The notes under the pieces were generated by a model. It was given only the letters and a program-made list of their open reading frames with translations, was not told the origin of the DNA and ran no database searches. The position numbers and the translations under genes were made by a program. Below are positions 1,530 through 21,191 of a DNA stretch of 64,000 nt, in pieces; position 1 is the stretch's first letter, and every line of letters starts with the position of its first letter. The stretch comes from Planctomycetota bacterium (GTDB lineage Bacteria > Planctomycetota > MHYJ01 > WSZJ01), in the NCBI GenBank assembly GCA_038060895.1, contig JBBTCT010000009.1:80082-144081 (forward strand), in the 5' to 3' direction.

Positions 1530-2735
1530 ATGTGGCCCTTCAGCCGCAAGGAACGCCCCCTCGACCGGGCCGCTTTCGCGGCCCTGTTTGAGGAGAGGCT
1601 TCGAGCAGCCGGGGAACAGAGGCCGATCGCGCGCGACATGCAGGCCTTCGCTCTGGTGGTGGGAGACGGGGCCTTGCGCATCTTCCTCGGGAACCACCTC
1701 GACGAGTACAACGCCGCCGCCAGGCCCGCCCGCGAAGCCCTCCTGGCGCGCGCGGTGCGAACCGCCGCCAGGCCGCTGGAAATTCCTCCATCGTTCGCCG
1801 CTGCGCTTCCGGCCCTGCTGCCCCGCCTGCGGATGCGTGTCTTCCACGAATTCCTCCGCCTGCGCGCCGACGCCGGCGGGCCCGCGATCCCGGAAATTCC
1901 CTTCCGCATCGTTGCGAACCACTTCGCCGCGAGCCTGGCGTACGACGGGCCCGACTCGGTTGCCGCGATCGCGGGGTCTAAGCTGGAGGAGTGGAACGTG
2001 GGGTTCGAAGCAGCCCTCGCGGCCGCGCTCGCAAACCTGGAGCGGCGAAGCGGCGGCAAGTGGGAGAAGCCGATGCGCGGCGTGCTTTGTTCGCCGTGGC
2101 ACGACGATCACGACGCCGCCCGGCTGCTGCTGGTGGACCTGGTGCGCGGGCTCGGCCTGAAGGGCGACCCGGTCGCGATGATCCCGAGCCAGAACCAGCT
2201 GCTGCTGGCGGGTTCCGATGACCCGGAGGGGCTGGCGTCGATGGCCAACCTGGCCGGGAAGTCGCTTCAGAAGCCGCGCGCCATGAGCGGTGTCGCCATC
2301 CGGCTCTCCGGGCGCGAATGGGCGCCGTTCACGCCCGCGGAAGGCTCTCCCGTCGCCTGGGGGCTGCGCGCGTTCGCGCTGCACTCGTTGTCGCAGGAGT
2401 ACGCGGAGCAGAAGGAACTGCTGGAGGCGCGCTTCGCGGCGAGGAAGGAGGACGTGTACGTCGCCGGGTTGATGCTGATCCGGTCGAAGGACTCGGACCG
2501 GGTTTCGACGCTGACGACGTGGACGGAGGGGGTGGAAGCGTTCTTGCCGGAGGCTGAAGCGATCGGGTTCATGAAGGTCACGGGCGTGGAGAAGGCGGAG
2601 ATGCGAGGAATGGTGCCGTGGGCGCGTGCGGCGGCGGTCCTCGGGAATGCGATGAAGCCGGAGGGGTTCTACCCTGCTCGCTTTCGAGTCTGCGGATTTC
2701 CGACGGAAGGGCAATTTGAGGAGATGGGCTTGTGA
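1530..2735 (+). CDS. Hypothetical protein (DUF1444-like)
   Basis: 401-aa ORF with normal high-GC codon usage. IFLGN..EY, D.HDAARLLL and VAMIPSQNQLLLAG motifs resemble this family. Confidence 0.5.
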   Translation: MWPFSRKERPLDRAAFAALFEERLRAAGEQRPIARDMQAFALVVGDGALRIFLGNHLDEYNAAARPAREALLARAVRTAARPLEIPPSFAAALPALLPRLRMRVFHEFLRLRADAGGPAIPEIPFRIVANHFAASLAYDGPDSVAAIAGSKLEEWNVGFEAALAAALANLERRSGGKWEKPMRGVLCSPWHDDHDAARLLLVDLVRGLGLKGDPVAMIPSQNQLLLAGSDDPEGLASMANLAGKSLQKPRAMSGVAIRLSGREWAPFTPAEGSPVAWGLRAFALHSLSQEYAEQKELLEARFAARKEDVYVAGLMLIRSKDSDRVSTLTTWTEGVEAFLPEAEAIGFMKVTGVEKAEMRGMVPWARAAAVLGNAMKPEGFYPARFRVCGFPTEGQFEEMGL

Positions 2736-3104
2736 CGGCATGGACCGCGAGCTCGGGCGATCGGACGGTGGGGAGCGATGGGGAGAAAGCTGAGTCCGGG
2801 GTGCCGGATGTCGCGAAAGAAGTTGTGGAGGTCGTCGAAACTTGAAAAAATATGCCGGATTCCATTGTCAATACTTGACATTCAATTTAAGTCCTTATTC
2901 GAAATAGACTTAAGATGAAGCGCTGCGCCTGAAAAATCCGAACTGCTCGAGATTGCGCTTCGACCTGCCAACTTTTGACCCCCGACGTTTCCATTCGGAA
3001 ACACAACCTGTAGTGGCTATTTCAGATTGATAGCCCTTCACATGGTGACGGCGCCCCACTCATGTGAATCTTCGTAAGCACTTCACGATTTTCAAGTTGC
3101 GGCC

Positions 3105-3195
3105 TTGACTAGCCGAAGAGGACATCGTAAAAGTGCAGCAACTGGGGAGCAGTGGGGTACAATCCCATTCAGACCCAGACAGTGGCAGGTGGGAA
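3105..3195 (+). promoter_or_regulatory. Putative dcw promoter with MraZ-type TGGG direct repeats
   Basis: TTGACT-17-TAAAAG at 3105-3133, then CTGGGG/GTGGGG at 10-bp spacing (3142, 3152) and further GTGG boxes upstream of mraZ. Confidence 0.5.
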
Positions 3196-3219
3196 CGGCG
3201 GGTACCACGGGGCGCGGCG

Positions 3220-3678
3220 ATGGCTGATTCCAAAACGAGGCTAAGCGGCAACCACTCCCAGGTTGTCGACCAGAAGCATCGTGTCGTCATCCCGGCACGC
3301 TTCCGCGAAGTCCTTGGCGACCACGTCAAGGTCGGTGTCTACCCCCTCGAGGACTTCTTCGTCCTCACCGTGTGCTCCCCCGCAATCTACGCCGAGCGCA
3401 TGGAGGCGCTGGAAAAGCGCGCCGAAAACGACCCGAAGCTCGACTCGGCGATCACGATTCTCGAGGGCACGACCCAGGAGCTCGACCTCGACGACCAGGG
3501 CCGCGTGACTCTCACGGCCGAACTCAAGGCCAAGGCCGGAATCGAGCGCGACGTCGTCGTCATCGGCCGCGGCAATTACCTGCAGATCTGGACGCAGGGA
3601 CGCTGGGAAGACTTCCAGAAGAAAGCGTTTGAAACGCCCGGAGGGATGCGGGAGAGCATCTTCCGGCGTTCTCAATAG
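3220..3678 (+). CDS. mraZ: Transcriptional regulator MraZ
   Basis: Two DxKxR/DxQGR motifs (VDQKHRVVIPARFR, LDDQGRVTL) plus IGRGNYLQIW; first gene of the dcw cluster. ATG at 3220. Confidence 0.9.
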   Translation: MADSKTRLSGNHSQVVDQKHRVVIPARFREVLGDHVKVGVYPLEDFFVLTVCSPAIYAERMEALEKRAENDPKLDSAITILEGTTQELDLDDQGRVTLTAELKAKAGIERDVVVIGRGNYLQIWTQGRWEDFQKKAFETPGGMRESIFRRSQ

Positions 3679-3724
3679 TCAGTTAACCAACGGGGCGCGG
3701 GCGGCGGAGAGAAGGGGTGAACTT

Positions 3725-3988
3725 ATGTCCGAGAAGCGTGATTCTTTCGACGTGGTGAAGGACCTCCTGAATGCAAGGAACGAAGGAATGCTCGACATGA
3801 ACGTGCTGCGCGATGCGCGGCCGCACGTCGAGGAAGTCGTCCGCCGTCTCGAGCGCCTGCGGGCGATCAGCCCCGCGTTCGCCGGCGTCGGCTTCGGCGA
3901 GAGTCTCTACGAACTCGTCAAAGAGCTCGGCATCGGGAAGAAGCAGTACCGCTTCCCGCTCCTGACGCGCGTCGCCGCCCTGCTGTAG
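3725..3988 (+). CDS. Small hypothetical protein between mraZ and rsmH
   Basis: ATG at 3725 with AAGGGG RBS; 87 aa; its stop overlaps the rsmH GTG start. Confidence 0.65.
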   Translation: MSEKRDSFDVVKDLLNARNEGMLDMNVLRDARPHVEEVVRRLERLRAISPAFAGVGFGESLYELVKELGIGKKQYRFPLLTRVAALL

Positions 3989-4869
3989 TGGGGGACCACG
4001 CGCCAGTCCTGGTCGCGGAGTTCCTGGCGCTGGCCGATCCGAAACCCGGCGAAAGCTGGGTGGACGGGACGGCCGGCGCCGGGGGGCACGCCCGGGAGAT
4101 CCTGGGAAGGATCGGTCCTGGCGGGCGCCTGATCGGGTTGGACCGCGATCCGGTGGCCGTGGAACTTGCCCGTTCGAGACTCGGGAGAGGCGCGAACGTG
4201 CAAATCGAGCTGGGCTCGTACGAACACGTCGAGGAGGCCGCGCAACGCCTCTGGGGAGGCGCAAAGTGCGACGGCATTCTGCTCGACCTGGGCGTCTCGA
4301 GCCTCCAGCTCGACGACCCGGCGCGCGGGTTCTCTTTCTCGCGCCCCGGGCCGCTCGACATGCGGATGGGGCCTGATTCAGAGCGGTCGGCAGCGGAGCT
4401 GGTGAACGGGGCGTCGGCGGAAGAGCTGGAACGGATCTTCCGCGAGTACGGCGAAGAACGTCAGTCGAGGCGGGCGGCGGACACGATCGTGCGCGAACGG
4501 AAGGGGAAGCCGTTCTCGGACACGGCGCGTCTGGCGGAAGTGGTGGCGGGGGCGGTCGGGGGGAAACGGGGGCGGACTCACCCGGCGACGCGCGTCTTCC
4601 AGGCGATCCGGATCGCGGTCAACCGCGAACTGGAGCGCCTGAAGGTCGCGCTCGACCGGTTGCCGGCGCTTCTCAACCCCGGCGGCCGTTTCGCCGTCAT
4701 CTCCTTCCACTCGCTCGAGGACCGGATGGTGAAGGGGAAGTTCAGGGAGCTTGGGCGTCAAGGCGGGTGGCAGGTCCTGACGAAACATGTGTCGGTCGCG
4801 TCGCGCGAAGAGGAGTTGAGCAACCCGAGGAGCCGGAGCGCGAAGTTGAGGGTGATTCGTCGGGAGTAG
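3988..4869 (+). CDS. rsmH: 16S rRNA m4C1402 methyltransferase RsmH
   Basis: HAPVL, DGTAGAGGH, DLGVSSLQLD, HPATRVFQAIRIAVN, ISFHSLEDR and NPRSRSAKLR motifs. Confidence 0.97.
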   Translation: MGDHAPVLVAEFLALADPKPGESWVDGTAGAGGHAREILGRIGPGGRLIGLDRDPVAVELARSRLGRGANVQIELGSYEHVEEAAQRLWGGAKCDGILLDLGVSSLQLDDPARGFSFSRPGPLDMRMGPDSERSAAELVNGASAEELERIFREYGEERQSRRAADTIVRERKGKPFSDTARLAEVVAGAVGGKRGRTHPATRVFQAIRIAVNRELERLKVALDRLPALLNPGGRFAVISFHSLEDRMVKGKFRELGRQGGWQVLTKHVSVASREEELSNPRSRSAKLRVIRRE

Positions 4870-4897
4870 TGGGTAGTTGGTAGTTGGTAGTGGGTAG
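4867..4897 (+). repeat. Heptamer tandem repeat TAGT(G/T)GG x4
   Basis: TAGTGGG TAGTTGG TAGTTGG TAGTGGG TAG, beginning at the rsmH stop codon. Confidence 0.8.
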
Positions 4898-4923
4898 GGA
4901 CAGCCAGGAAAAGGGGAGATGAC

Positions 4924-5244
4924 TTGAAGACTTCACGGCCCATCCTGCTGGTGGCGCTCTTTCTGCTCGTCGGGCTGCTGACGGTGTGGCAGCAGGCGGA
5001 GACGCTTCGGCTCGGGTACCGGATCCGCGATCGCGAGCAACGGCTCGCGGAGCTGGAACGCGAGCGGCGTCGATTGGAGGCCGAAGTGGGCCGGTGCAAG
5101 GCGCCCGCGACGCTGATGGACCGCGCCACGGCCCTGGGAGTAGACCTGGTCGTACCGCAAGACTGGCGAGTCCTGAAGCCAGGTCAAGCCGCGCCACTCA
5201 CTTCGGAGCGAGTCGTAGACGCCAGGAATCCAGGAAGGCCCTGA
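4924..5244 (+). CDS. ftsL: Cell division protein FtsL-like
   Basis: One TM helix then a coiled coil (LRLGYRI...LEAEV...A.LM.RA..LG), positioned between rsmH and ftsI. Confidence 0.75.
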   Translation: MKTSRPILLVALFLLVGLLTVWQQAETLRLGYRIRDREQRLAELERERRRLEAEVGRCKAPATLMDRATALGVDLVVPQDWRVLKPGQAAPLTSERVVDARNPGRP

Positions 5245-5259
5245 CAAGCCAGGCAAGAC

Positions 5260-5328
5260 TCCCTACCCCCTACCTCCTACTCACTACCCCCTACTCACCC
5301 CTCAACACTCCCAACTCTCTCCTTTCCT
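5260..5328 (+). repeat. Degenerate C-rich heptamer repeat (CCCTACC/CCCTACT), roughly inverse of the 4867 repeat
   Basis: CCCTACC CCCTACC TCCTACT CACTACC CCCTACT... Confidence 0.7.
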
Positions 5329-5400
5329 TACCACCACGCCGCCGCACCCCGGAGCCCTACGGTGTTCACCCAAGGCCTGCCCGAACCAAAACCCGCGAAC

Positions 5401-7161
5401 ATGCGGGCCGGGGCCGCGCCGACCTCACGCCCGGCCGGCTGGAAGTTTGACCTGGGCTTCGCTTGCTTCGCCTGTCTCTTCCTCGCCCTCGGCCTGCGCC
5501 TCTGGGCGATCCAGGTGCGCGGCCACGACAAGGCCGTCGCCGAGCAGGAATCCCAGGCCTGGGCTCTCGAGGAAATCGAGCCCCAGCGCGGCGACATCGT
5601 CGACCGCGACGGCCGCATGCTGGCGATCTCGAAGCGCGTCCCGAGCTGCTTCGCGGACCCGAAGTACCTGGAAGATCCGGACGACGCGGCCGCAAAGCTG
5701 TCCGCGACGCTCGGACTGGACCGGGAAGCGCTTCTCAAGAAACTGAAAAGCGGCCGGCGGTTCACCTGGGTGAAGCGGCGGTGCTCGTCGGAGGAAGAGG
5801 AGGTCGTCAGGGCGATGAAACTGCGCGGCGTCGGGTTCGAGAGCGACACGCGCCGGGCGTACGTGCTCGGAAATTCGATGGGACAGGTGCTCGGGTACGT
5901 GGACATCGACGGGTTCGGGCTGGAAGGGCTGGAGCGCGAGTACCAGCAGGTCATGGCGGGGCGGGCGGGGGAGCAGTGGGTGTTGCGCGACGCAAAGCGC
6001 GACATGATCAGCAGCTTCACACGCCCGGTGAAGGACGCGCGGCCCGGGGCAACGCTCCAATTGACGATCGACGCGCGAATCCAGAACGTCGCGGAGCAGG
6101 CGCTGGCGAAGGTGATGGAGAAGCACTCGCCGGAGAGCGCGGTGGCGGTGGTGACGGACCCGCGGACGGGGGAGATCCTGGCGATTGCGGGGTACCCGAA
6201 CTATGACCCGAACAACCCGGCGGCGGGGAAGCCCGAGGCGCGGCGGTGCCGGGCGGCGACGGATTTCTTCGAGCCGGGATCGACGTTCAAGGGCGTTGTG
6301 ATGGCGGGGTTGCTGGAGAAGGGGCTGGTGAAGCCCGGAGAGATGATCGACTGCGCCGGCGGGTCGTGGAACTACCGGGGGCGGACGATCTCGGACGTGC
6401 ACGGGCACGGCGCGATTTCCGTCGCCGACGTGCTGATCGTCAGCTCGAACGTCGGCATGGCGAAGATGGCGACGCGGATGAAGCCGACGGACCTCGAAGC
6501 CTGGATCCGCGGGTTCGGGTTCGGGAAAGTCACGGGAGCCGGGATTCCTGGCGAAACGCCCGGCGTCGTCCCGCGCGAGCACCCGTGGAAGCCCCAGACG
6601 CTCGTCAGCGCTTCCTTCGGTTATGCCGTCGGCGTGACCCCGCTCCAGCTCGCCCAGGCGTACGGGGCGATCGCCAACGGCGGAACAATCCTGCCGCCGC
6701 ACCTCGTCAAGGCGGTTCTCGACGATCGCGGCGAAGAAATCGAAATGTCCCCGCTTCCCCCGGGAAATCGCTACCTCAGCACCAAAGTCAGCCGCGACAT
6801 CGTGTCGATGATGATTCAGGTCGTGGAGCGCGGGACCGCGAAGTCCGCGAAGCTCGACGGCTGGCTGGTGGCGGGAAAGACGGGGACGACGAAGCTCCTC
6901 GGCAAGGACGGGAAGTACGCGGCTGGGAAATACGCTTCGAGTTTCGTCGGGTTTGCGCCGGCGGACGACCCGAGGCTGCTGGTGGTCGTGGTCGTGAAGG
7001 AGCCGCAGGGGGCGTACTACGGCGGGACGGTGGCGGCCCCGGCGGTCGGTGAAATCCTGAGGGAAGGACTGACGCTGCTGGAAGTCAGGCCCGACGCAGC
7101 GAAGGTCAAGTTGAAGCGCGAGGAGTTCGCAAGAAAGACGGCTACGGAGGGACGGCGATGA
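5401..7161 (+). CDS. ftsI: Class B penicillin-binding protein FtsI/PBP3
   Basis: RGDIVDRDG, LTID, EPGSTFK (SxxK), SSN and KTGT motifs. Start uncertain (5362 GTG or 5401 ATG). Confidence 0.92.
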   Translation: MRAGAAPTSRPAGWKFDLGFACFACLFLALGLRLWAIQVRGHDKAVAEQESQAWALEEIEPQRGDIVDRDGRMLAISKRVPSCFADPKYLEDPDDAAAKLSATLGLDREALLKKLKSGRRFTWVKRRCSSEEEEVVRAMKLRGVGFESDTRRAYVLGNSMGQVLGYVDIDGFGLEGLEREYQQVMAGRAGEQWVLRDAKRDMISSFTRPVKDARPGATLQLTIDARIQNVAEQALAKVMEKHSPESAVAVVTDPRTGEILAIAGYPNYDPNNPAAGKPEARRCRAATDFFEPGSTFKGVVMAGLLEKGLVKPGEMIDCAGGSWNYRGRTISDVHGHGAISVADVLIVSSNVGMAKMATRMKPTDLEAWIRGFGFGKVTGAGIPGETPGVVPREHPWKPQTLVSASFGYAVGVTPLQLAQAYGAIANGGTILPPHLVKAVLDDRGEEIEMSPLPPGNRYLSTKVSRDIVSMMIQVVERGTAKSAKLDGWLVAGKTGTTKLLGKDGKYAAGKYASSFVGFAPADDPRLLVVVVVKEPQGAYYGGTVAAPAVGEILREGLTLLEVRPDAAKVKLKREEFARKTATEGRR

Positions 7162-17712: not shown

Positions 17713-17743
17713 GAAACGAACGGGTGGCCCTTCTCGCAACGCC

Positions 17744-17873
17744 GTATCCGCGGCCGTTTCCGCAAGATCCGCATTCATCCGCGTATGCCTTTTCGGACTT
17801 TCCATTTGCCCTGAAGTTCAGGACAAAGGAATACGCGGATGAAGGCGAATGACGCGGAAACGGCCGCGGATAC
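17744..17873. repeat. Long inverted repeat (MITE-like); one arm recurs at 56613-56651
   Basis: GTATCCGCGGCCGTTTCCGC...TTCATCCGCGTAT pairs with ATACGCGGATGAA...GCGGAAACGGCCGCGGATAC. Confidence 0.75.
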
Positions 17874-17914: not shown

Positions 17915-18388
17915 ATGCGCCTCCTCTTCGTCTGCACCGGAAACCTCTGCCGCTCGCCGATGGCGGAGCACCTGATGAAGCGCGCCCTCGCGGTGCGGCT
18001 GAAAGTGCCGGTGGACTCACTGGCGGCGCGCGGCTGGATCATCGAGTCGTCCGGGACGAACGCGTACGACGGGATGGACATGCCGGCGGACGCGCGGATC
18101 GCGCTGGCGGAGCTGGGGATCACGGGAGCGCAGCACTCGTCGCGGATCCTGCGCGTCGCGCAGCTCATGACCACGGACTTCGCATTCGCGGCGGCGCACG
18201 AGCATTTCCAGGCGATGCTCAGGATTCATCCGGAGTCCGCGGCGAAGATTCGGCTCCTGGACCCGCAGGGGGATGTGCCAGACCCGATGGGGGAAGGCAT
18301 CGACTCCTACCGGTATGCGGCGGCGCAGATCTCGGTGGCGGTGGAATCCCTGGCGAAGGAATTCACGAAGCCGCCCCCGAAGCGATAG
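17915..18388 (+). CDS. Low-molecular-weight protein tyrosine/arginine phosphatase
   Basis: FVCTGNLCRSPMAE P-loop and DVPDP motif. Confidence 0.92.
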   Translation: MRLLFVCTGNLCRSPMAEHLMKRALAVRLKVPVDSLAARGWIIESSGTNAYDGMDMPADARIALAELGITGAQHSSRILRVAQLMTTDFAFAAAHEHFQAMLRIHPESAAKIRLLDPQGDVPDPMGEGIDSYRYAAAQISVAVESLAKEFTKPPPKR

Positions 18389-18606
18389 CGCGCCCGGGAT
18401 TCGTGGGTGTCGAAGGTTGACGTCCTCGTCGCCGAGCTGATGCGACGTCAGGAGAACCTTTCGGAATGCGAGTGTGTTCTCCTCGAAAATCGCAAGCCCC
18501 TCCAGTGAGAAAGCGGATTGTGCTCTTACAGAACCTTGGTCAGAAAGTGAACACTGTCATCGTCTTGAATCCGAACGGGCGAAATAAAAACCACGAGGAA
18601 TTTGCG

Positions 18607-18735
18607 CTAACCCTGTTTCGCCTTTGGCTTAGGTGCCTTGTGAGGCATCGGCGGGGTGCTTAGAGCGCGGCGCAAAACCTCCGTAAGCTGAGACAGCTTC
18701 ACGGGTTGCGCTTTCCTGTTCGCGGGCTTCTTCAT
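18607..18735 (-). CDS. Small basic protein (42 aa) inside the IS element, absent from the ORF track
   Basis: MKKPANRKAQPVKLSQLTEVLRRALSTPPMPHKAPKPKAKQG, with GGAGAG RBS. Confidence 0.55.
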   Translation of the reverse strand: MKKPANRKAQPVKLSQLTEVLRRALSTPPMPHKAPKPKAKQG

Positions 18736-18975
18736 GTCTCTCTCCGTATCATTCTGTACATCGTACTTAATGCAATGCTATGAAAGGGTTTATGTCACTT
18801 TGAGCTTTGATGCGTGCGCGTCAAGGGCTAACCTCAAGGCACTAAACCCCTACAGGAAGGAAAAGCGAATGCCCCCGCCAAGAATAGCTGATCGGCCTGT
18901 CTAGAGGCCGGGACAAACAAGGGGGAGGAAGCGATCCCCGCGAAAGGTGCTGCTTCCTCCCCCACTAGATCGCCA

Positions 18976-19048
18976 GCCCGCGTACCCCAATCGGCAGAGG
19001 GCCAGCCTTGGACGCTGCATGGTACAGGTTCGAATCCTGTCGCGGGCA
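18976..19048 (+). tRNA. Atypical tRNA, anticodon TGG (Pro); no encoded CCA
   Basis: Acceptor GCCCGCG/CGCGGGC plus A73; D-loop AATCGGCA; anticodon arm CAGC-CTTGGAC-GCTG; T-arm ACAGG-TTCGAAT-CCTGT. One mismatch in the D stem and one in the anticodon stem. Confidence 0.8.
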
Positions 19049-19091
19049 TGAGACAGTTGTCATTCTACAACCCGCGTCAAGAGGCGAACCC

Positions 19092-19478
19092 ATGAACGTG
19101 ACTCACTTCTTCATCTGTCGCAAGAAGCACTTCAATGACAAGCAGCAGCAGATGGACGCCTACGGAATCTACTACTGTCCTGTGGATATCACGCCAACAG
19201 GAGAAGTTCCGATCACCGTACTTGCGGCCATCGAGGTTGATCCCGGCGAGGATGGCAGGCGTCTCAAGGTTTGCATCGATTCCCCGGGCGGTGGACGCTC
19301 TTGGGTTCCACTTCAAACAATCTCGAACCTGAACCGCGAACAGCGCGTGGGCTGGTTTCATGGATCGGGGCCTTTTGTCGCGCGGGAACCCGGGGATTAC
19401 ATTTTCCACCTGAAGACCGATGAGGCCGGACCTGATTTGGCCCCAGCTTGTTGCCTTCGTATGAAGCAACCGGGATAA
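19092..19478 (+). CDS. Hypothetical passenger protein (128 aa, predicted beta-rich, DUF6941-like)
   Basis: ATG at 19092 with GAGG; atypical codon usage; convergent with the transposase. Confidence 0.55.
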   Translation: MNVTHFFICRKKHFNDKQQQMDAYGIYYCPVDITPTGEVPITVLAAIEVDPGEDGRRLKVCIDSPGGGRSWVPLQTISNLNREQRVGWFHGSGPFVAREPGDYIFHLKTDEAGPDLAPACCLRMKQPG

Positions 19479-19513
19479 GAATGCACCCGGTTTCCAGCTT
19501 GCGAAAGTAGCCG

Positions 19514-20497
19514 TTATTCACCGCTGGCCCTCCGCTTTGGCTGTTCCAGCGTGAGCCTGCAACCTGGGGCCAGCTTCAGGGCCTCAACCATCCGCTCGCC
19601 GTCCGTCATCTTGCGGCGGTTGTAGCGGAACACGTATTCATCGGCGTACTTCTTGAGGTAGTCCCGCCCGACGCCGTGGTAGACGCCGACAAGCCCGGTC
19701 CTGAAGAGGCCGAAGAAGCCCTCGATGGTGTTGGTTGTGATTCCACCCGGCTTGGCGTACTGCTGAATCGAGTGATTGACCGTCTCATGCCCGCCGTACT
19801 TCCGGGCGATGGGCTTGTACATCGCGGCCTCATCGGTGTAGAGGACGGCGGACGGGTCAACCGTCGCTTTGATCACCCGGCGAATCTCATGCGAGCGGAC
19901 CTTCTTGGACTTCCGCTTGATGATGCTCACCCGGAGATCGCCGTCACGCTGGATAAGCCCGACAACCGGGGTCTTGGGCTTGTACTTGACCTTCCCGTTG
20001 ATGTTGCGCGGGCGTCCGCCCCAGTACATCTCATCGACCTCCACCGTCCCGGTAAGCAGCGTGCGCCCCTGCTTGAGACAGTGGCGGATGCGGTGGCAGA
20101 GGAACCAAGCCGACCTGTACGAACCCAACCCAAGGTGACGCTGTAGGCTCAAGGCAGAGATGCCCGTCTTGCTGGACATCATCATGTAGAACCCCATGAT
20201 CCACACGCGCAGGGGCAAGTGGCTCTTCTCCATGATCGTGCCCACCGTGACGCAGAAGTTGCGCTTGCACGCGCTACACCGCTTCAGGCCCGCGCGGATG
20301 CCCTTGTCCGGGTTTGGCGTCAGCGACCAGATGCGCCCCTTCTTGAACTCAAAGTAGCCCTTGTTGCAGTAGGGACACTCTGGGCCTTTCGGCCACCTGA
20401 TCTGTTCAAGGTACGCCCGCGCCTTGTCCTCATCTGGGAACAAGGCCTGTAGATCAAGCAGCGTAATCGAGTCAGCGGCTGGCATCTCATGCGTCAT
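19514..20497 (-). CDS. IS1595-family transposase
   Basis: Zn ribbon (RWP.GPECPYC...CSAC), VEVDEMYWGG, LYTDE, VNHS, TNTIEGFF and YADEYVFRYNRR motifs. Confidence 0.95.
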   Translation of the reverse strand: MTHEMPAADSITLLDLQALFPDEDKARAYLEQIRWPKGPECPYCNKGYFEFKKGRIWSLTPNPDKGIRAGLKRCSACKRNFCVTVGTIMEKSHLPLRVWIMGFYMMMSSKTGISALSLQRHLGLGSYRSAWFLCHRIRHCLKQGRTLLTGTVEVDEMYWGGRPRNINGKVKYKPKTPVVGLIQRDGDLRVSIIKRKSKKVRSHEIRRVIKATVDPSAVLYTDEAAMYKPIARKYGGHETVNHSIQQYAKPGGITTNTIEGFFGLFRTGLVGVYHGVGRDYLKKYADEYVFRYNRRKMTDGERMVEALKLAPGCRLTLEQPKRRASGE

Positions 20498-20642
20498 GGC
20501 TTATTCCTTGGGCTCTTCTGAAGTTGACAGTAATTCTAACGTATGAACCCCGTACCAAGGTTCGCTAAATGCATAATTCCGTGAGAAAATGCAAGTCATT
20601 AGCCCGCAGGGGCTTGCGCTGTCCTGATTTTGTCGATCCACG

Positions 20643-20671
20643 TTGACAGCATTACAGCAATGTCATATTAT
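20643..20671 (+). promoter_or_regulatory. Sigma-70 promoter with TGACA-N12-TGTCA dyad
   Basis: TTGACA-17-TATTAT, ending 10 nt before the ATG at 20682. Confidence 0.75.
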
Positions 20672-20681
20672 TACTGCAAGT

Positions 20682-21191
20682 ATGACCCCACCCACCGACG
20701 ACCTCACGCTCGACAGCCTCTGCGAAGACGCCACGCGCCTCCTGAAGAAACATGGCCTCCTCGACACCCAGCCCGACGGCCGCGTCAGCGACGCCCCCGA
20801 CGCCCGGACGGTGCGCTACTACACCACGATGGGCCTCGTCGACCGGCCGCGCATCGTGGACAGGGAAGCTCGCTACGGCTGGCGACAGGTCCTGCAGGTC
20901 CTCGCCATCAAGGCTCTTCAGCACCAGGGCCGCCCCCTCGCCCAGATCCAGGGCCTCCTCTACGGCCGCTCCGAAGCCGAGCTCGAATCCGTTCTCCGCG
21001 GCGTCACCGAACGCCCCCAGCCGCGCCGCCCCGCCGTGAAGACCGTCACCGTCCGCGAAGTCGTCCTCGAACCCGGCCTCCGCCTCCTCGTCGAGGAGGG
21101 GTGGGCCGCTTCCGACGCCGACTCGCTCGTCGCCCGTTTCCGCGCGGCCGTCGCCGCGCTCTCCGCTTCCAATGGAGGGAGCCCGTCATGA
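20682..21191 (+). CDS. MerR-family HTH regulator
   Basis: PDARTVRYYTTMGLVDRP...EARYG...IK.LQ.QG..L..I pattern. Confidence 0.85.
   Translation: MTPPTDDLTLDSLCEDATRLLKKHGLLDTQPDGRVSDAPDARTVRYYTTMGLVDRPRIVDREARYGWRQVLQVLAIKALQHQGRPLAQIQGLLYGRSEAELESVLRGVTERPQPRRPAVKTVTVREVVLEPGLRLLVEEGWAASDADSLVARFRAAVAALSASNGGSPS

Follow-up and report, generated by a model that had tools for sequence, protein, structure and literature searches.

The common view of insertion sequences is that they hold hardly more than a transposase gene, and that of transfer RNAs (tRNAs) is that they match their anticodons. Dedicated tRNAs are known from other settings: bldA, a chromosomal and correctly matched tRNA-Leu(UAA) of Streptomyces, gates a few genes that hold TTA codons and controls development, and some phages encode suppressor tRNAs and have in-frame stop codons in their late genes, with many genes recoded genome-wide. 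Members of the IS1595 family that carry passenger genes have been called “transporter IS” (Siguier, Gagnevin and Chandler 2009, cited in PMC3129680). Allo-tRNAs, or “irregular tRNAs,” are bacterial tRNAs in which anticodon and amino-acid identity disagree; they include missense and nonsense suppressors, have a 12-bp acceptor branch (8/4 or 9/3 acceptor/T-stem) and mostly serine or alanine identity, and are tied to transposable elements in a passing remark (Mukai et al. 2017, PMC5389517). Here we analyze a 64-kb stretch of DNA (the window; positions 80082-144081 of contig C9) from the draft genome of a groundwater Planctomycetota bacterium (5.4 Mb, 47 contigs, 86.5% complete), in which a 2-kb IS1595-family element carries a tRNA that breaks the match between body and anticodon, and in which the transposase gene of the element appears to be written to fit that tRNA.

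Window positions 18513-20580 are one intact, 2,068-bp, passenger-carrying (“transporter”) IS1595-family insertion sequence, which appears to have inserted into an intergenic spacer and duplicated 8 bp there. Its features, including its open reading frames (ORFs, with lengths in amino acids, aa), are the following:

18505-18512, no strand: left copy of the target-site duplication, GTGAGAAA, identical to 20581-20588
18513-18540, no strand: left terminal inverted repeat, imperfect, GCGGATTGTGCTCTTACAGAACCTTGGT, resembling the family end consensus
18607-18735, minus strand: ORF of 42 aa that has a basic tail and the motif LRRALSTPP, the motif being kept in related elements
18921-18963, minus strand: terminator-like hairpin, a perfect 12-bp stem (GGGGGAGGAAGC/GCTTCCTCCCCC) and then TTGTTTGT on the minus strand
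18976-19048, plus strand: cargo tRNA, 73 nt, anticodon UGG (ARAGORN, Rfam RF00005)
19092-19478, plus strand: 128-aa passenger ORF (ORF128), all-beta, without sequence relatives
19514-20497, minus strand: IS1595-family transposase, 327 aa, zinc ribbon and DDE domain, 6 of 16 proline codons CCA
19538-19540, minus strand: “gate” codon CCA (Pro320 in the standard code), matching the anticodon of the cargo tRNA and lying 7 codons ahead of the stop
20554-20580, no strand: right terminal inverted repeat, reverse complement GGAATTATGCATTTAGCGAACCTTGGT
20581-20588, no strand: right copy of the target-site duplication, GTGAGAAA, abutting the right end

The preliminary description of this DNA had proposed an IS1595-family element with imperfect terminal inverted repeats and an 8-bp direct repeat, and both the ends and the transposase domains bear it out. 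The inverted repeat formed by 18517-18540 and 20554-20577 (24 nt, 79% complementary, including GAACCTTGGT) is the longest of 60 inverted pairs within 18300-20800, and both ends (right, GGAATTATGC; left, GCGGATTGTGC) are similar to the consensus GGnnATTATryACTTGACAAA, which was read off related elements by a diagonal search used in place of a motif scan that had proved too noisy. The transposase matches PF12762 (3.2e-32) and PF12760 (5.8e-09), and its match to NF033547 (6.3e-55) scores 186 bits against a cut-off of 75. An 8-bp target-site duplication is a mark of the IS1595 family; the window element has this duplication together with the zinc-ribbon/DDE transposase and the terminal inverted repeats of the family, and 8-bp duplications also surround the related elements L056, L065, L066, L117 and L120. 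The ends of the ISNwi1 subgroup in ISfinder start GGnnATTAT, and the window element may belong to this subgroup. GC content is 0.53-0.61 across 18450-20700, the tRNA part included, compared with ~0.68 around it. Contigs from two other studies span both element junctions with zero differences, and the junctions are therefore no assembly artifact.

The cargo tRNA is the sole tRNA found by ARAGORN in the window, and it scores 59 bits on Rfam RF00005 (gathering score 29). In both the Rfam and the ARAGORN folds it has a 7-bp acceptor stem and a 5-bp T stem; it belongs to type I, its variable loop being short, and it has G1:C72, A73, A14, A15:U48, G18G19, A37 and the anticodon loop CUUGGAC. Its CCA end is not encoded, and C12-A23 and C27-C43 are mismatched. 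The proline identity set of E. coli includes C1:G72, G15:C48 and G37, and leucine identity in E. coli lies in A73, A15-U48 and G18G19, the anticodon and the long arm being dispensable; A14 is a leucine element named for mitochondrial tRNA-Leu, “as for E. coli” (PMC9976931). Set against the proline elements, the cargo tRNA has the anticodon (UGG, hence NGG with G35 and G36) and departs at the other three places, with G1:C72, A15:U48 and A37. Set against those of a type I tRNA-Leu, it has A73, A14, A15:U48 and G18G19 and departs at the anticodon, which is neither NAG nor YAA. Among the 85 tRNAs that ARAGORN calls in the host genome, the nearest are the 73-75-nt tRNA-Leu(CAG), tRNA-Leu(GAG) and tRNA-Leu(CAA) on contig C22, identical to it at 58, 56 and 57 of 73 nt, respectively. 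No host tRNA-Pro is among its six nearest, and the host tRNA-Pro genes (CGG, GGG and UGG; on C1, C9, C12 and C22:195856) all begin CGGG and share C1:G72, G15:C48 and G37 with the E. coli set. The cargo tRNA looks like a leucine-type body with a proline anticodon rather than an ordinary tRNA-Pro.

Two of the three nearest tRNA-Leu genes sit in a 4.2-kb tRNA array. This array, 44 tRNA genes on a single strand (C22:195134-199316 of the host genome, G000; locus L045, ~2135-6317), includes short, 73-75-nt tRNA-Leu genes that lack the long variable arm, as well as one gene whose anticodon ARAGORN reads as four bases (tatg). Pieces of it are present in all seven same-genus genomes, and the array and its short tRNA-Leu are therefore native to the genus and no recent import.

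The tRNA starts 463 bp inside the left end of the element, and it had been described as cargo and not as an integration target. The same locus in relatives gives the same answer. When a 4.3-kb query around the insertion site was compared with 40 relatives, the flanking genes were found on one contig and only 121-280 bp apart in four of the seven same-genus genomes (G002-G005), compared with ~2,250 bp in the window; in the other three they were rearranged or on separate contigs. None of the seven same-genus loci has a tRNA at the syntenic place, so relatives that lack the element have no tRNA there either, and the element interior has no DNA match in any of the seven genomes. The spacers of G002-G005 are too diverged to align at the insertion point or to show a single GTGAGAAA, and the empty site is demonstrated at the gene level only. 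Four sequencing runs gave no contig joining across the element and no empty-site contig; one listed joint, 18160 to 21056 (side 21, 25 foreign letters), looks like another organism. From the spacers without element and tRNA in the four readable genomes we conclude that the tRNA is cargo. The left end lies at 18513, where the 8-bp duplication, the family-type end and the extent of the GC dip all place it, and not to the right of 19048, where the tRNA ends. Beyond the right end, window positions 20643-20671 hold a near-consensus promoter-like site (TTGACA, 17 nt, TATTAT; 11/12), 55 bp from the element and before the downstream gene. The same sequence is present in G002, and the element therefore seems to have inserted immediately upstream of a resident promoter and left it intact.

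A search for further copies, which the preliminary description had suggested, found only the one copy of the window element in the genome and, at C22:273854-274795, a transposase 49% identical to that of the window. The latter belongs to a second element (C22:272727-274862; locus L044, 6728-8863) whose inverted ends, 21 nt each, match perfectly (L044, 6728-6748 and 8843-8863); it shows a dip in GC and a duplication of 7 bp, and it is missing from the syntenic place in G002, G003 and G004. It encloses two long tRNAs, side by side: one with a serine-type body and the anticodon CCA, identical to the host tRNA-Ser(GGA) at 73 of 91 positions, and one with a leucine-type body and the anticodon UGG. 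The two elements are laid out alike, with an end, a small ORF, a minus-strand terminator-like hairpin, the tRNA or tRNAs converging on the transposase, the transposase and an end. In the window, the terminator-like hairpin at 18921-18963 is a putative terminator for transcripts arriving from the transposase side, and a comparable hairpin with a T-run can be read from the sequence at the matching relative position of the C22 element. The anticodons of the two C22 tRNAs, CCA and UGG, are mutually complementary.

The tRNA-bearing arrangement recurs well beyond this genome. We scanned the surroundings of related transposases for tRNAs, as had also been proposed, in 109 loci that total 501,874 bases (the window and C22, 8 loci from genomes, 19 from 400 genomes of the phylum and 80 from metagenomes), using ARAGORN, Rfam at its gathering score (40 loci) and a covariance model of our own, R1 (100 loci), each of which missed some. 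There are 30 tRNA-like genes in 22 of the 109 loci, where the density in the host (85 per 5.42 Mb) would lead one to expect about 8; R1, run on 100 loci (L119-L125 not covered), added no further long-arm (class II) tRNAs beyond a cut 3' half at the end of L080. Eighteen of the 30 are encoded on the strand opposite to the transposase and downstream of it, at a distance of 2-1,344 nt from its end. The tRNA is enclosed by inverted ends in the window element, the C22 element, L025, L133 (G147), L046, L050 and L085; inverted ends were not recognized in the G168 element (L132). In a quick tree, carriers fall in several clades, one of which has 10 carriers among 14 members. The anticodons that concern us here are distributed over the loci as follows:

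UGG cargo, 12 loci: window, C22, L029, L031, L046, L050, L054, L077, L088, L096, L098, L123
AGG cargo: L071
UGC cargo: L025, L107, L111, L115
UUA cargo (ochre-reading): L085, L118
UGU cargo: L124

The mismatch between body and anticodon recurs with the tRNAs. At least three bodies bear UGG, namely that of the window and L123, that of L046 and L050, and the leucine type with a long arm. Not one of the 16 leucine-type cargo tRNAs of class II has a leucine anticodon; theirs are UGG, AGG, UGC, UUA or UGU. These 16 share the D arm of tRNA-Leu, an invariant U48 and a consensus 7/5 geometry, 15 of them have A73 (the remaining row was excised one base short), and compensatory changes occur at 23 of the 24 pairs in their consensus. 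The cargo tRNAs retain the cloverleaf, G18G19 and the T-loop, and in many of them CCA is encoded. Seven of the 12 UGG cargo tRNAs, that of the window and 6 more, have A37 instead of the G37 of host tRNA-Pro; position 37 is variable, and two UGG tRNAs (L031, L077) have C33. A homologue of the window tRNA with compensatory stem changes adjoins the related transposase of L123. Relatives without a tRNA hold other genes in the same slot: PIN domains (2), N6 methylase/Eco57I-type (2), GmrSD, Panacea, M78 with DUF4411, and a methylase with Mrr. The tRNA-carrying IS1595 elements are a recurrent and apparently undescribed association.

Codon use in the transposase genes was compared with the cargo anticodons in an alignment of 104 transposases (12 UGG carriers, 4 UGC carriers and 88 without UGG or UGC cargo). 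CCA makes up 33% of proline codons in the UGG carriers (50/151), ~20% in the UGC carriers (8/41) and 12.4% in the 88 others; reciprocally, GCA makes up 30% of alanine codons in the UGC carriers (29/96), ~10% in the UGG carriers and 12.5% in the 88 others. The reciprocal controls, GCA in UGG carriers and CCA in UGC carriers, are thus much weaker or flat. Where the GC content of third codon positions (GC3) is at least 0.8, the CCA share is 33% in UGG carriers and 3.3% in non-carriers. The window transposase, at GC3 0.84, uses CCA for 6 of its 16 prolines, compared with 12.7% in a host proxy.

The association also shows at a fixed place near the C-terminus, 4-7 codons after a conserved “RL,” which we call the gate. 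Of the 12 UGG carriers, 11 have CCA there, as do 5 of the 79 non-carriers, and three of these five lie on contigs with less than 700 nt downstream, where cargo status is not readable. The gate codon is CCT in the AGG carrier and a stop codon, TAA or TAG, in both UUA carriers (L085, L118). A tail read through this stop in L085, ARRASGK, resembles KRRASGE of the window, and that of the sister element L118, IDCKALSN, does not; the likeness was given no weight. The cognate codons are also placed selectively. In UGG carriers CCA accounts for 4 of 45 codons at family-conserved proline columns and for 46 of 106 elsewhere (p=2e-5), and in UGC carriers GCA accounts for 1 of 20 at conserved alanine columns and for 28 of 76 elsewhere (p=0.005); in non-carriers the shares at conserved and other columns are 9.1% and 13.9% for CCA and 12.0% and 12.2% for GCA. 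CCA stands at hydrophobic-conserved columns in L029 (94% LIMVF) and L002 (74%), and GCA at one 95% LIMVF column in all four UGC carriers, whereas control cells with synonymous proline codons fall at hydrophobic-conserved columns in none of 81 cases. That conserved prolines are seldom written as CCA suggests a reading of this codon that is not purely proline. These comparisons show, at the level of sequence, a transposase gene co-adapted in its codons to the anticodon of the cargo. The “translation tuning” offered in the preliminary description therefore stands in part: a cognate codon is built into the element's own transposase gene, but the tRNA is no spare tRNA-Pro, having a leucine-type body under its proline anticodon.

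Our preferred reading, to which we give even odds, is that the cargo tRNA decodes the CCA codons of the element's own transposase mRNA. If it does, the tRNA would be expressed and charged, with leucine or a leucine/proline mix rather than with proline alone, and would act on the ribosome as the element's own CCA decoder. CCA is over-used in the transposase gene, held at the gate seven codons before the stop and kept off conserved prolines. The gate codon would limit transposase output, such that completing the enzyme depends on the element's own tRNA, and the residue at the CCA sites of the transposase might also be set by that tRNA. Rare codons near the 3' end of a gene can stall ribosomes and lead to tagging by transfer-messenger RNA. 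It is possible, although we hold this wider proposal only tentatively, that the clade as a whole uses a private dialect of the code, in which a leucine-type tRNA with a foreign anticodon (UGG, AGG, UGC or UUA) is paired with a matching codon in the transposase gene (CCA, CCT, GCA, or TAA or TAG), and the tRNA is both a key to the transposase and a mild mistranslator of the whole proteome. Under such a dialect the matching codons would sit at tolerant or hydrophobic positions and at the C-terminal gate, and an active, full-length transposase would be made only where the element's own tRNA is expressed.

Several observations weigh against decoding by the cargo tRNA. After correction for relatedness only 6 independent pairs are left; the gate follows the tRNA in 4.6 of them on average and opposes it in none (sign test, p=0.06). 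L029 is a UGG carrier and yet has TAT at the gate, and the four UGC carriers are a single clade with TCA or TCG there. The C-terminal tail is the least certain part of the transposase alignment, and “non-carriers” on short contigs may be hidden carriers. The codons cognate to the companion class I tRNAs (UCG, CGU, GGC, CGC, UCU, CUG and GUC) and to the class II UGU tRNA are not consistently enriched. None of the RNA runs checked contains the element stretch, and the element is single-copy in the host genome, with no second insertion to demonstrate movement. Plain prolylation of the cargo tRNA is possible as well, because the host prolyl-tRNA synthetase (ProRS) is of the archaeal/eukaryal type (TIGR00408, 558 bits; TIGR00409 under its cut-off). 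Finally, a clean recoding of CCA to leucine is not supported: at none of 12 conserved-leucine columns does any carrier have proline, which speaks against a private recoding at conserved leucines, and leucine is not enriched at CCA cells (L share 7.0%, compared with 7.5% for all cells).

Of the alternatives, one that survives about as well as any, and that we nonetheless think unlikely, is that the tRNA serves the host cell in a general way, as an additional or nuclease-resistant decoder of proline codons, charged with proline, that would aid host or element in conflicts with anticodon nucleases and have no special link to the transposase. The conflict-type genes that tRNA-less relatives hold in the same slot fit such a role, as does the higher share of CCA in the element (6 of 16) than in the host proxy (12.7%). 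Proline identity lies in the anticodon, A73 and the first pair and differs between the two ProRS types, and for the archaeal/eukaryal type found in this host the anticodon, A73 and G1:C72, all present in the cargo tRNA, can suffice (PMC9976931). A supply of proline decoders does not predict, however, that the cognate codon is avoided at conserved prolines and yet fixed at one position of the transposase. Nor does it account for the bodies, which are leucine-type, and once serine-type, but never proline-type, with none of the 16 class II bodies bearing a leucine anticodon, or for A37 in place of host G37 in seven UGG cargo tRNAs.

A comparably low probability attaches to a tRNA-shaped RNA that does not decode at all and serves as a processing or stability signal, gives rise to antisense RNA that runs into the transposase gene from its 3' end, or acts as a decoy that draws off toxins which cut tRNAs. 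Eighteen of the 30 tRNA-like genes are suitably placed for this, downstream of the transposase on the opposite strand, and the minus-strand terminator-like hairpin just past the tRNA in the window and C22 elements means that the transposase transcript may bear an anti-tRNA tail. C33 in the UGG tRNAs of L031 and L077 and the variable position 37 point the same way, and most allo-tRNA(UAU) species are perhaps unused in translation (Mukai et al., PMC5389517). The cargo tRNAs nevertheless keep a full cloverleaf, G18G19 and the T-loop, often encode CCA and covary in 23 of 24 pairs, and their anticodon covaries with in-frame transposase codons (CCA, CCT, TAA/TAG), a triplet-level signal that points to the ribosome.

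We give still less credence to a tRNA that mistranslates the whole proteome, placing leucine at proline codons, as a toxic or stress effector for defense or addiction that the transposase merely tolerates. Self-protection of this kind would fit the avoidance of CCA at conserved prolines, but by itself it predicts fewer CCA codons in the transposase gene, not a three- to ten-fold excess and a fixed gate, and family scans recognized no partner antitoxin or regulator. What such an effector would explain well is that only bodies of anticodon-blind synthetases (Leu, Ser) are used, that ochre-reading versions exist (L085, L118) and that the slot is otherwise occupied by defense or toxin-antitoxin genes.

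That the tRNA is a decaying hitchhiker, captured DNA without present function, is very improbable. The two stem mismatches (C12-A23, C27-C43), the single copy of the element and a simple upstream scan that shows no sigma-70-like promoter before the tRNA would be expected of one; 59 bits on the tRNA model, the compensatory changes in the L123 homologue, the recurrence of UGG on three body types and the 6 of 16 CCA codons of the window transposase at GC3 0.84, compared with 3.3% in GC3-matched non-carriers, would not. A plain 1.1-kb insertion sequence beside a resident chromosomal tRNA, with its true left end to the right of 19048, has nothing more in its favor than the imperfect left inverted repeat and can practically be dismissed, contradicted as it is by the seven same-genus loci without a tRNA (with a spacer of 121-280 bp in the four readable ones), by the 8-bp duplication and family-type end at 18505-18540, by a GC dip that begins at ~18450 and by six other elements that enclose a tRNA between clear inverted ends.

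The element has two further ORFs, both of which the preliminary description counted as passengers. That description fits ORF128 and probably not the 42-aa ORF, which, because its LRRaLsTPP motif is conserved in related elements, is probably a gene of the element itself: with tblastn the motif is matched at E<0.01 in 8 related loci, and it is matched in the second element of the genome as well. The 42-aa ORF has no Pfam, NCBIfam or PADLOC family match. Many elements of the clade have, in varying position and orientation, an ORF of ~40 aa with a lysine-rich tail and the pattern (V/I)LRR(A/M)L(S/N)TPPxP (for example L087 2432-2500, L112 1991-2062, L094 3300-3407 and L048 4456-4542), which may be an undescribed accessory protein of these elements. 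ORF128 returns only itself in a word-indexed search, has no Pfam, NCBIfam, PADLOC or PHROG family match and is unrelated to the 127-aa ORF of L050; a HMMER match to a 697-aa tandem-repeat protein was spurious, its score being the sum of ten weak repeats. Its ESM Atlas model (predicted TM-score, pTM, 0.81) has a TM-score of 0.82 to a DUF6941 cluster, and its AlphaFold2 (AF2) single-sequence model is too weak for a fold search (predicted local distance difference test, pLDDT, 55.7); a DUF6941-like fold is a lead only.

Some of the related loci deserve mention in their own right. The 4.2-kb element of L046 (3439-7603), which has a UGG tRNA, also carries a gene for indole-3-glycerol-phosphate synthase (4425-5318, minus strand; PF00218, 6.2e-49), an odd, metabolic passenger for an insertion sequence. 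Alanine tRNAs are marked by G3:U70; the class I companion tRNAs with alanine anticodons (GGC and CGC; L077 2266-2339 and L118 3980-4053) have T:A at 3:70 instead and, by this mark, look mismatched as well. L027 (G171:C50:9212-10135) encodes a clade-B transposase with one in-frame TAA in the conserved C-terminal region and has no tRNA within 1.5 kb on either side; either the gene is a pseudogene, perhaps, or a more distant ochre-reading tRNA may serve it. In the window itself, a ~135-bp stretch at ~17741-17873, between D-Ala-D-Ala ligase-like and phosphatase-like ORFs, has many copies in this genome and in the same-genus genomes; every copy matches it in either orientation, which makes it a palindromic repeat of the dispersed kind.

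Should the link between the anticodon of the cargo and the codons of the transposase prove functional, mobile elements would have a new means of controlling their own enzyme, and mis-decoding or stop-reading tRNAs would have a natural route by which to spread among bacteria. The link also gives a concrete and testable client gene to “irregular,” allo-tRNA-like tRNAs, whose role has been open since 2017. Leucine-type scaffolds that tolerate UGG, AGG, UGC, UGU and UUA may also interest genetic-code engineers. A literature search turned up no description of IS1595 elements with tRNA cargo, nor of a transposon whose tRNA fits the codons of its transposase.

Our data suggest that the window element shares features with several described systems and coincides with none of them. 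Like the transporter members of the IS1595 family, it has a zinc-ribbon and DDE transposase, inverted repeats and an 8-bp duplication, and additional genes lie between one end and the transposase; unlike theirs, its passenger is a tRNA gene, and codons of its own transposase match the anticodon of that tRNA. Its tRNA resembles allo-tRNAs in pairing a body with an unfitting anticodon, but the cargo tRNAs have the standard 7/5 geometry and leucine-type bodies, and the excerpted text on allo-tRNAs makes no link to transposase codons (PMC5389517). In Streptomyces coelicolor, type I (short-arm) tRNA-Leu is charged by the single leucyl-tRNA synthetase (LeuRS) of that species (PMC6614811); these tRNAs have the same body type as the window tRNA and the tRNA-Leu of the host array, and they indicate that a bacterial LeuRS can charge such bodies without a long arm, although they retain leucine anticodons. 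As with phage suppressor tRNAs, a mobile element would bring its own tRNA for codons in its own genes, down to the TAA or TAG at the gate of L085 and L118, but here the scale is one 2-kb insertion sequence and one gene, and in the window the codon is a sense codon. A parallel in logic is bldA, a dedicated tRNA that gates genes with an otherwise rare cognate codon, and the window transposase shows the corresponding enrichment and fixation of that codon (CCA at 6 of 16 prolines; gate, 11/12 compared with 5/79; p=0.06 when corrected for relatedness). Like bldA, the window tRNA could act as a dedicated decoder, with the difference that it travels with the gene it would control and has a body that does not match its anticodon.

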